From a phage, in the sequence record OR846211.1: DNA of 1,197 nucleotides. One strand, given 5' to 3'. Below the pieces are notes generated by a model. That model searched no databases. It saw only the letters and a list, made by a program, of their open reading frames with translations, and had not been told where the DNA came from. The first letter of the stretch is position 1. Every line of letters begins with the position of its first letter. The position numbers and the translations under genes were made by a program. Positions 1-1,182 of this stretch are shown here, in pieces.

Positions 1-705
1 TTTATAAGGAGGGATAAAGGCAGTCATCACCTCTTCTTTGAGTTTTCCGTCTGACCATGCCTGAGCGGCACGCTGATGCGAACGGTGCGCTAATGCATCT
101 TGCTGTTCTCGGGTGATGCCGTAGGTTTTCGCCATTTGCTCTGCAGTGTCGCCCATCCGCAAGCCGGTAGAATATTCTGCTACCGCAGGTGGTACGGGCA
201 TTAAGTCGCGCAAACGCAGGCGAGAGAAGAGTTTCAGACGCTGGCTCATTGTGCGGGCTTTGTTGACATCAACCAGCACGCGCGCCAGTTTTTTACTGAC
301 GCCAATTGGCAATACCGAAGAGGAATCTGCCCCACCGGCAATCCCCGCTCGGATAGTCCCCGCCATCAGGCTTTCTACGACGTTTGCAACCGCCTGGAAA
401 CTGGTAGCGCAAGCGCGGCTGACGCTGTAAGCATCGGTATGCACATTCATTCCAGTACCGAGAACAATTTCACGCGCAATGTTGGGAGCTTCAGGCATTT
501 GTACGACCTGACCAAAGACCAGTTGTTCAATCACTTCGGCGGGGATCTCGCTGCGTGCCAGCAGTTCGCCTACCACCATCTTCCCTAAATCAACCGCGGG
601 AATGCCATGAAAAGCCGTCGCCTGGCGGGCAAAAGGCGTACGTAAACCGCTAACAATGGCGATACGATCGCCCTGGCGGGTAACCAGCGGTAAAACCTGA
701 CCCAT
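1..705 (-). CDS. fadI: 3-ketoacyl-CoA thiolase FadI (anaerobic fatty-acid beta-oxidation), 5' portion only: N-terminal 235 codons, truncated at the window's left edge
   Basis: Hand translation of the minus strand from ATG (plus 705..703) gives [235 protein letters not shown] with no stop through position 1. This matches my recollection of E. coli FadI (YfcY) and includes the thiolase nucleophile motif SRACATS (Cys99, codon at plus 409..411). A Shine-Dalgarno sequence lies just upstream. No database search was possible. Confidence 0.93.
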
Positions 706-825: not shown

Positions 826-867
826 AGAAAGAAAAGAAAACGCCCCTACCTGTTGCTGGCAGGAGCG
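826..867 (-). terminator. Probable rho-independent terminator of yfcZ
   Basis: Minus-strand RNA downstream of the yfcZ stop: CGCUCCUG (867..860), loop CCAGCAACAGG, UAGGGGCG (848..841), able to form a GC-rich hairpin of about 8 bp including 2 G-U pairs, or a nested CCUG/CAGG stem. It is immediately followed by the U-rich run UUUUCUUUUCUUUCU (840..826), beginning 18 nt after the stop codon. Confidence 0.5.
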
Positions 868-884
868 TACTTATCCGAGAGGAA

Positions 885-1169
885 TTAACGCAGACCCAGC
901 TGGAAGATCAGCATTTCAGCTTCGCAGGCAAAAGTGAAATCGATATCCAGGCGCACACCATCAGACTCTTCAGTGAAAGTCGGGGAGATTTTGCACGGTT
1001 CGGATTCCACGCTACGGGCTTTCTCAGTCAGCGCCGCCAGCGTTTGTTCTGCTTCTGCGCGGTTTGCAAACACGCGGCTGTAAGACGCTGTGCAGTCGGA
1101 GTTGTCCATAATGGTGCCAACATCCATACAGCAGCAAACCGGGGTTTCATCAGCACTACATTTACTCAT
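885..1169 (-). CDS. yfcZ: Small acidic cysteine-rich protein YfcZ (UPF0381/DUF406 family), function unknown, 94 aa
   Basis: Minus-strand ORF from ATG (plus 1169..1167) to TAA (plus 887..885) encodes MSKCSADETPVCCCMDVGTIMDNSDCTASYSRVFANRAEAEQTLAALTEKARSVESEPCKISPTFTEESDGVRLDIDFTFACEAEMLIFQLGLR. This matches my recollection of E. coli YfcZ, which lies between fadL and fadI. The ATG has a well-spaced Shine-Dalgarno sequence. The 102-aa version in the ORF track starts at an upstream GTG (1193) and is not preferred. Confidence 0.88.
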   Translation of the reverse strand: MSKCSADETPVCCCMDVGTIMDNSDCTASYSRVFANRAEAEQTLAALTEKARSVESEPCKISPTFTEESDGVRLDIDFTFACEAEMLIFQLGLR

Positions 1170-1177
1170 CGTTGATT

Positions 1178-1182
1178 TCCTC
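1178..1182 (-). promoter_or_regulatory. Ribosome-binding site (Shine-Dalgarno GAGGA) for yfcZ
   Basis: Minus strand reads ACAGAGGAAATCAACG-ATG; GAGGA is 8 nt upstream of the ATG at 1169. Confidence 0.6.

Follow-up and report, generated by a model that had tools for sequence, protein, structure and literature searches.

YfcZ of Escherichia coli, a small cysteine-rich DUF406 protein encoded divergently from fadL

The yfcZ gene

Here we describe yfcZ, a gene for a small cysteine-rich protein, as it occurs in a stretch of 1,197 nucleotides from a phage sequence record (OR846211.1; the whole stretch is referred to as the window). The window consists of chromosomal DNA of Escherichia coli/Shigella, is 99.9% identical to the E. 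coli O157:H7 sequence and was found in every complete E. coli genome searched (5426/5426), each time as a single chromosomal copy. According to the RefSeq annotation of E. coli O157:H7, yfcZ lies between the divergent fadL gene (upstream) and the genes fadI and fadJ, which follow downstream on the same strand. Neither yfcZ nor its family, DUF406, is new. The detail added here is that the full set of cysteines is kept in the YfcZ clade, that fadL is the stable partner of yfcZ, and that yfcZ forms a unit separate from fadIJ.

The coding sequence occupies positions 885-1169 on the minus strand, running from an ATG at 1169-1167 to a TAA at 887-885 (94 codons plus the stop codon). It was recognized from its open reading frame and translation, by the family models PF04175 and TIGR00743, and by comparison with RefSeq E. 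coli yfcZ. The translation is MSKCSADETPVCCCMDVGTIMDNSDCTASYSRVFANRAEAEQTLAALTEKARSVESEPCKISPTFTEESDGVRLDIDFTFACEAEMLIFQLGLR. The product is acidic (isoelectric point 4.25; 17 Asp/Glu versus 8 Lys/Arg), contains no histidine and has cysteines at positions 4, 12, 13, 14, 26, 59 and 82. An earlier note on this DNA, made from the sequence alone, had described an acidic 94-residue protein with exactly these seven cysteines, including a CCC triplet, and the translation agrees with it in every position. Seven cysteines among 94 residues represent an excess (binomial P = 1.2e-4) over a frequency of 1.16%, which we take to be the value for the E. coli proteome.

Upstream of the ATG the sequence reads ...ACAGAGGAAATCAACG-ATG, with a Shine-Dalgarno GAGG at 1179-1182 (minus strand), 9 nt 5' of the start codon. 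An in-frame GTG at 1193 (minus strand), 24 nt further upstream, would extend the product to 102 amino acids. YfcZ homologues start at MSKCS, and because of these N-termini and the position of the Shine-Dalgarno sequence we consider ATG 1169, which gives the shorter form, to be the real start rather than GTG 1193. Peptides of YfcZ have been seen in several proteomic studies. yfcZ is thus a real and expressed gene for a small, acidic, cytoplasmic DUF406 protein. At codon 62 (984-986) the window encodes serine (KISPTF), as does one Shigella flexneri locus; proteomic peptides from K-12 carry threonine instead (ITPTFTEESDGVR), so the alleles differ here in a residue that is poorly conserved.

Family assignment and fold

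YfcZ matches PF04175 (DUF406) with E = 1e-36 and 125.8 bits (cut-off 25) over the entire profile (positions 1-91 of 91), and TIGR00743 with 156.6 bits against a cut-off of 71.45. A second DUF406 equivalog, PRK09981 (NF007435), gave 87.2 bits, which is below its cut-off of 130. We take PRK09981 to be the YiiS-type model; by this model, YfcZ is therefore a paralogue and not an orthologue of YiiS. The earlier note had held that YfcZ has no assigned function. This is borne out by Pfam and NCBIfam, which offer only DUF406 and "YfcZ/YiiS family", and by the papers mentioning yfcZ among those searched, none of which gives a role.

DUF406 is a small family: from 1.84 billion cluster representatives, an exhaustive HMMER scan yielded 106 clusters at 50% identity, and those that could be named are all gammaproteobacterial except for one from Neisseria. 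This exception (P0174) is a homologue in Neisseria chenwenguii, a betaproteobacterium. As DUF406 has been described as confined to gamma proteobacteria (PMC2860719), its presence there suggests horizontal transfer.

Three members of the family have structures solved by nuclear magnetic resonance (NMR): YiiS (2k3i; E = 7e-17 to YfcZ), VC_A0919 (2khd) and VPA0419 (2jz5). According to PMC2860719, they are monomers with a beta-alpha-beta-beta-alpha arrangement and an antiparallel sheet whose strands are ordered A-C-B; YiiS is disordered over its N-terminal ~28 residues, and the most conserved residue of the family is a glutamate that opens the last helix, Glu89 in YiiS. An AlphaFold2 model of YfcZ, built with 120 homologues, reproduces the fold of 2k3i and 2jz5, with strands at residues 27-34, 60-68 and 71-79 and helices at 37-54 and 83-93. 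The mean predicted local distance difference test (pLDDT) score per block is 91-96 for residues 31-90 and 84 for residues 91-94, and it falls below 50 at residues 1-8, 13-16 and 18-23. In this model, residues 27-94 (codons at 888-1091, minus strand) form a ferredoxin-like beta-alpha-beta-beta-alpha sandwich, which carries C59 (within an SEPC motif), C82 and the family-wide residues F80 and E85, present in 36/36 and 35/36 family representatives, respectively; E85 is the YfcZ counterpart of the glutamate that opens the last helix.

The only functional hint given by the NMR authors is a tentative resemblance to pterin-4a-carbinolamine dehydratase (PCD/DCoH): the alpha/beta architecture is similar, and the conserved glutamate surface of DUF406 overlaps the ligand site of PCD, although the ligand-binding residues of PCD are not conserved in DUF406 (PMC2860719). 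We considered a PCD/DCoH enzyme as a candidate for YfcZ. Catalysis by PCD depends on histidines. With no histidine in the protein, ligand residues that are not conserved and no PCD match in Pfam, this candidate was rejected.

Conserved cysteines and a conserved N-terminal arm

Conservation was assessed in two sets, namely 120 sequences of the YfcZ clade (34-100% identity; Enterobacterales, Pasteurellaceae, Orbaceae and some Alteromonadales) and 36 full-length DUF406 representatives covering the family. The earlier note had made cysteine conservation among homologues a check on its proposal of metal or redox chemistry, and within the clade all seven cysteines are indeed kept, each in 86-100% of the 120 sequences. 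C12 is present in all of them (120/120, 100%), C13 and C14 in 114/120 each (95%), C59 in 96%, C26 in 92.5%, C82 in 89% and C4 in 86%. Family-wide, C12 and C82 were each found in 32 of the 36 representatives, C59 in 27, C13 in 25, C14 and C26 in 23 each, and C4 in 10.

Five of the seven cysteines belong to an N-terminal arm that comprises codons 1-26 (1092-1169, minus strand) and is predicted to be disordered. It contains C4, the triplet C12-C13-C14 (TGC TGC TGT at 1128-1136, minus strand), D16, G18, D22, N23, D25 and C26. Apart from the cysteines, D16 is invariant in the YfcZ clade, and V17, G18, T19, D22, N23 and D25 are kept in at least 90% of the sequences. That the arm is strongly conserved yet unstructured suggests that it folds upon binding of a ligand or partner. 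According to the AlphaFold2 model, C26 is directly followed by strand 1, C59 by strand 2 and C82 by helix 2. From the antiparallel A-C-B topology we infer that these three cysteines share one end of the sheet, beside E85.

YiiS (E. coli/Shigella, 2k3i) resembles YfcZ in belonging to the same Pfam family and in its core fold, its disordered N-terminus, the conserved glutamate and an F-x-C-Q-A-E motif. In contrast to YfcZ, the aligned YiiS sequence has a single cysteine at the CCC triplet and none at the SEPC motif. The two Vibrio proteins match YfcZ weakly (E = 0.085 for VPA0419 and 0.64 for VC_A0919) and differ from it in lacking C26, C59 and C82. Since distant members are devoid of most of the cysteines, the full set is a specialization of the YfcZ clade.

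Genomic context of yfcZ

For the analysis of gene order, 166 loci were pooled and collapsed to 41 clusters at 90% protein identity. A metagenome scan contributed 80 of these loci, being the best 80 only, found with patterns that required CCCVDVG-type motifs. In 35 of the 40 evaluable clusters, yfcZ has a divergent fadL homologue at a distance of no more than 700 bp, and in two more the distance is within 3 kb; in one cluster fadL is found elsewhere in the locus, and two have no fadL. A fadI gene downstream of yfcZ was seen in 17 of 32 evaluable clusters and is absent from the other 15.

Within the Enterobacteriaceae, the order yfdC-mlaA-fadL<>yfcZ-fadI-fadJ-sixA is complete in 75 of 80 species, and the other five loci are partial. 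At such short evolutionary distance, this order only reflects general collinearity. The more distant loci are of greater value in this respect. The Serratia locus is organized as in E. coli. In Plesiomonas, two copies of fadL diverge from yfcZ, and fadIJ is preceded by a BatD-family gene. In Agarivorans and one further contig, fadL is one or two genes away from yfcZ. In Pasteurella multocida and Mergibacter, yfcZ is paired with a divergent fadL homologue, and fadIJ is not nearby. A Pasteurellaceae-like contig carries ogt, followed by fadL divergent from yfcZ and then by hcr-hcp. The H. influenzae YfcZ-type protein (P0147) is 44% identical to YfcZ (E = 3e-19), and in loci of this type (products 88-99% identical to the H. 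influenzae protein) a FadL homologue is encoded divergently at a distance of ~205-290 bp; the H. influenzae-type metagenome loci showed homologues of neither fadI nor fadJ within ~6 kb.

As the outer flanking genes differ between these lineages, it is the fadL-yfcZ pair itself that resists rearrangement. From E. coli to Haemophilus, the stable partner of yfcZ is fadL and not fadIJ. The earlier note had placed yfcZ in a fatty-acid degradation neighbourhood, between fadL and fadIJ, and had asked for synteny with fad genes outside E. coli. The position between fadL and fadIJ is correct and synteny with fad genes extends far beyond E. coli; the link to fadIJ did not hold up, and the one that persists is with fadL.

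A second DUF406 paralogue of the Pasteurellaceae type (P0178; L169 2440-2730) is more divergent than P0147, and its gene directly follows trpS, at a site where fadL is not nearby. This paralogue probably corresponds to the HI0638/P44027 type; P44027 has been implicated in passage between epithelial cells, as cited in PMC2860719.

The yfcZ transcription unit and the control region of fadI

Downstream of yfcZ, a terminator scan identified an intrinsic terminator at 830-868 (minus strand), which starts 17 nt past the stop codon and consists of an 11-bp GC-rich stem (868-840) and a U-rich run. Its RNA fold has a predicted energy of -22.4 kcal/mol (z = -4.2), and none of 200 shuffled sequences was as stable. 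An Rfam match to ctRNA_p42d at 830-871 (minus strand) was dismissed: with 18.6 bits against a gathering threshold of 50 and E = 0.64, and overlapping the terminator, it reflects a generic hairpin.

The spacer between yfcZ and fadI, which are on the same strand, measures 179 nt. It harbours a FadR-type operator, GTGGTCTGACCTGAT, at 732-748 (no strand assigned; 13/15 positions in the pattern scan), 26-42 nt upstream of the fadI start, which is kept in 74 of 77 Enterobacteriaceae loci. This operator belongs to fadIJ and not to yfcZ. By genomic SELEX (systematic evolution of ligands by exponential enrichment), the fadIJ promoter has been placed between fadI and yfcZ (PMC7660256). Given the terminator behind yfcZ and the distinct promoter region, with its FadR box, that serves fadI, we regard yfcZ as monocistronic. 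This agrees with studies on RppH-dependent decay, in which yfcZ mRNA served as a single transcript from its native promoter.

These features bear on the idea that yfcZ could be the first, promoter-proximal member of a yfcZ-fadI-fadJ operon and encode an accessory subunit of FadIJ. Although fadI follows on the same strand at only 179 nt and the order is shared by all Enterobacteriaceae sampled, by Serratia-like loci and by Plesiomonas, the strong terminator directly behind yfcZ and the promoter region with its conserved FadR box ahead of fadI (PMC7660256) led us to reject the operon, and fadI is missing downstream of yfcZ in nearly half of the evaluable clusters. We therefore consider this explanation to be largely refuted and its likelihood to be very small. 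Of fadI itself, the window includes only the 5' part, the first 235 codons (1-705, minus strand; TIGR02446 FadI with E = 2e-143, Thiolase_N, RefSeq), which is given here as context.

The shared fadL-yfcZ spacer and expression of yfcZ

The spacer between fadL and yfcZ lies outside the window (L003 5629-6000) and measures ~372 bp, a length that is near-constant in most of the 80 Enterobacteriaceae species. On its fadL side we found two FadR-type boxes in 77/77 Enterobacteriaceae loci, 260-300 nt from the yfcZ ATG. The spacer also has a CRP-type box (TGTGA-N6-TCACT), which starts ~121 nt before this ATG in 75/77 loci. The corresponding spacers of the Pasteurellaceae type are shorter (~220-310 bp), and several of them have a FadR-type box at 111-155 nt from the yfcZ ATG, compared to ~0.02 chance matches expected per spacer by our own calculation.

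According to the literature, the divergent fadL/yfcZ unit is bound by RpoN/NtrC, and upon nitrogen depletion fadL is reduced 3.5-fold and yfcZ 3.1-fold (PMC8743547). LldR also binds the spacer, and the authors concluded that it activates both genes (PMC10272880). Upon oxygen exhaustion, yfcZ was induced (log2 3.0) in one study and fell into an expression cluster with yfiD, hypABE and nrdDG (PMC2241611). A search for an FNR box in the yfcZ promoter gave only matches with two mismatches that are not kept beyond close relatives, and it is the CRP-type box that is conserved instead; an FNR box was thus discarded. A "yfcZ/fadL" sweep reported for copper-evolved E. coli is listed as A262E. As position 262 is impossible in a protein of 94 amino acids, the entry is uninformative on YfcZ and a link to copper was dropped.

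Thiol reactivity and possible thiol functions of YfcZ

In a preprint by Bak and Weerapana, the tryptic YfcZ peptide spanning C4-C26 gave iodoacetamide L/H ratios of 4.6, 4.4 and 3.5. These authors regard values below 5 as highly reactive, a class typical of iron-sulfur (Fe-S) ligands and catalytic nucleophiles. Values for this peptide come from the experiment on intrinsic reactivity alone. For C59, a study on GrxD lists net log2 values of -0.25 (bipyridyl), -0.30 (grxD deletion plus bipyridyl) and -0.40 (grxD deletion), which gives no sign of iron-dependent occupancy. This assay is not decisive, because the neighbouring row for a cluster ligand of AcnB has the same net value.

Two known classes of thiol proteins do not fit. 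YfcZ does not show the CxxC on a thioredoxin fold that characterizes thiol-disulfide oxidoreductases of the thioredoxin type. Metallothioneins are very rich in cysteines, which are arranged in CxC/CC arrays, and do not form a regular folded core unless metal is bound. YfcZ, with 7.4% cysteine and a core that is confidently folded from residue 27 to 94, was rejected as a member of this group.

YfcZ might be an oxygen-labile Fe-S protein, with a [2Fe-2S] or [4Fe-4S] cluster held by the CCC arm together with C26, C59 or C82, that acts as an electron carrier or sensor in anaerobic fatty-acid use. Such a role would be in line with six to seven conserved cysteines, with an N-terminal arm that is disordered in the apo state, with the reactivity class of the N-terminal peptide and with a transcript that climbs along with FNR-type anaerobic genes when oxygen is depleted; moreover, the downstream neighbour FadIJ has been described as an alternative beta-oxidation route (PMC7660256). 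On the other hand, the reactivity of C59 shows no net increase under iron chelation or grxD deletion, the Pfam and NCBIfam matches include no known Fe-S motif, three adjacent cysteines would be unusual ligands, and the gene is kept without nearby fadIJ in the Pasteurellaceae-type loci. We therefore think it unlikely that YfcZ is an Fe-S protein of this kind.

Alternatively, YfcZ could work as a thiol-disulfide relay or sulfur carrier, in which the reactive residue would be C82, located at the N-terminal end of helix 2, and C59 and the CCC arm would have resolving or shuttling functions. Flexible cysteine-bearing tails act in this way in some reductases and sulfur carriers. C82 and C59 are suitably placed in the model, immediately ahead of helix 83-93 and strand 60-68; the F-x-C-Q-A-E motif is nearly invariant, with E85 one helical turn from C82, the arm is both flexible and conserved, and the thiols are reactive. 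Against this, C82 is replaced by tyrosine in 12/120 sequences of the clade and the genomic context suggests no substrate, which leaves a relay or carrier function about as doubtful as an Fe-S cluster.

A possible role alongside FadL

The reading that we favour combines a conditional thiol site, for metal or cluster binding or for disulfide exchange, with a role of YfcZ alongside FadL; we put its probability at roughly 35%. C26, C59 and C82, if gathered at one pole near E85, might form such a site together with the tethered CCC arm, and the site would stay disordered unless it bound a metal ion or cluster or exchanged disulfides. YfcZ would then serve the uptake of exogenous long-chain fatty acids by FadL rather than beta-oxidation by FadIJ. 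The second part of this proposal is based on the fact that the fadL-yfcZ pair and the FadR boxes in its spacer recur in Enterobacterales and in Pasteurellaceae, and in the latter fadIJ is not nearby. Also in favour of the proposal are the conserved cysteines, the highly reactive C4-C26 peptide, the joint fall of fadL and yfcZ upon nitrogen depletion, the activation of both by LldR as concluded in PMC10272880, and the rise of yfcZ when oxygen became limiting.

Several points weigh against this proposal. The distant family members VC_A0919 and VPA0419 are without most of the cysteines and YiiS retains only some, so that the core function of the family does not depend on this set. Purified YiiS was monomeric, with no mention of a cofactor (PMC2860719), and the C59 values of the GrxD study count here as well. 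The clustering of C26, C59 and C82 derives from topology and not from measured distances. No fatty-acid phenotype for yfcZ was encountered in the literature searched. With respect to gene order, yfcZ of Gilliamella is flanked by deaD and sixA and has neither fadL nor fadIJ in the 6 kb to each side, FadL is far more widespread than the small DUF406 family, and shared regulatory DNA alone can also preserve a divergent pair.

The points on gene order would likewise fit a link to the fad genes that is positional only. YfcZ would then have an unrelated role, for example as a general protein of oxygen limitation or stress like its paralogue YiiS, and the pair would have stayed together since the compact shared spacer is costly to split. 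Besides the Gilliamella locus and the broad distribution of FadL, such an explanation would account for the two clusters that have no fadL neighbour and the three with a displaced fadL, for the near-fixed spacer length across the Enterobacteriaceae, and for paralogues in other contexts, such as P0178 next to trpS. The context of yiiS, which adjoins uspD, is unlike that of yfcZ as well; yiiS features in a paper on the YdeO regulon. What speaks against mere position is that the pair survives differing flanks in Pasteurella, Mergibacter, the P0150 contig, Plesiomonas and Serratia, and that FadR-type boxes persist in the much shorter spacers of the Pasteurellaceae type. In comparative genomics, furthermore, conserved divergent pairs usually prove to be co-regulated and functionally linked. 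A purely positional link is a serious possibility, if on balance a doubtful one.

A more far-reaching version of the favoured reading, a thiol site combined with a role next to FadL, would make YfcZ a cytoplasmic thiol protein dedicated to import through FadL, needed in Enterobacterales and Pasteurellaceae for imported long-chain fatty acids under low oxygen. It might act either as a metal- or redox-gated switch or as an S-acyl acceptor whose CCC arm is loaded from acyl-CoA or acyl-AMP. We know of no protein family with such a role in FadL-dependent import. This version is speculative and we consider it improbable.

In either form, the proposal concerns a core E. coli y-gene, present in all 5426 complete genomes and with a product seen in proteomics, and it turns a protein vaguely "near fad genes" into a specific, testable lead on metal or thiol chemistry and on the handling of exogenous fatty acids. 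If a metal or thiol role together with a fatty-acid defect proved true, YfcZ would be a cytoplasmic component that has so far been missing from the picture of fatty-acid uptake in bacteria. If not, fadL-yfcZ would represent a clean case of synteny held by shared regulatory DNA.

Further observations

A protein of 1564 amino acids (P0220) that came up as a relative of YfcZ proved to be an adhesin with cadherin/Big_9 repeats. The similarity is limited to one 41-residue stretch of 39% identity without the cysteines, and the score is inflated by five repeats; the match is spurious. In Gilliamella (L085 6001-6766), sixA is still found downstream of yfcZ, as if fadIJ had been deleted. A BatD-family gene occurs downstream of the yfcZ homologue in three loci (L084 6293-7903, L086 6496-8238 and L168 9886-11607; Agarivorans, Plesiomonas and a further contig); in the Agarivorans locus, VWA, DUF58 and MoxR-type genes come next.

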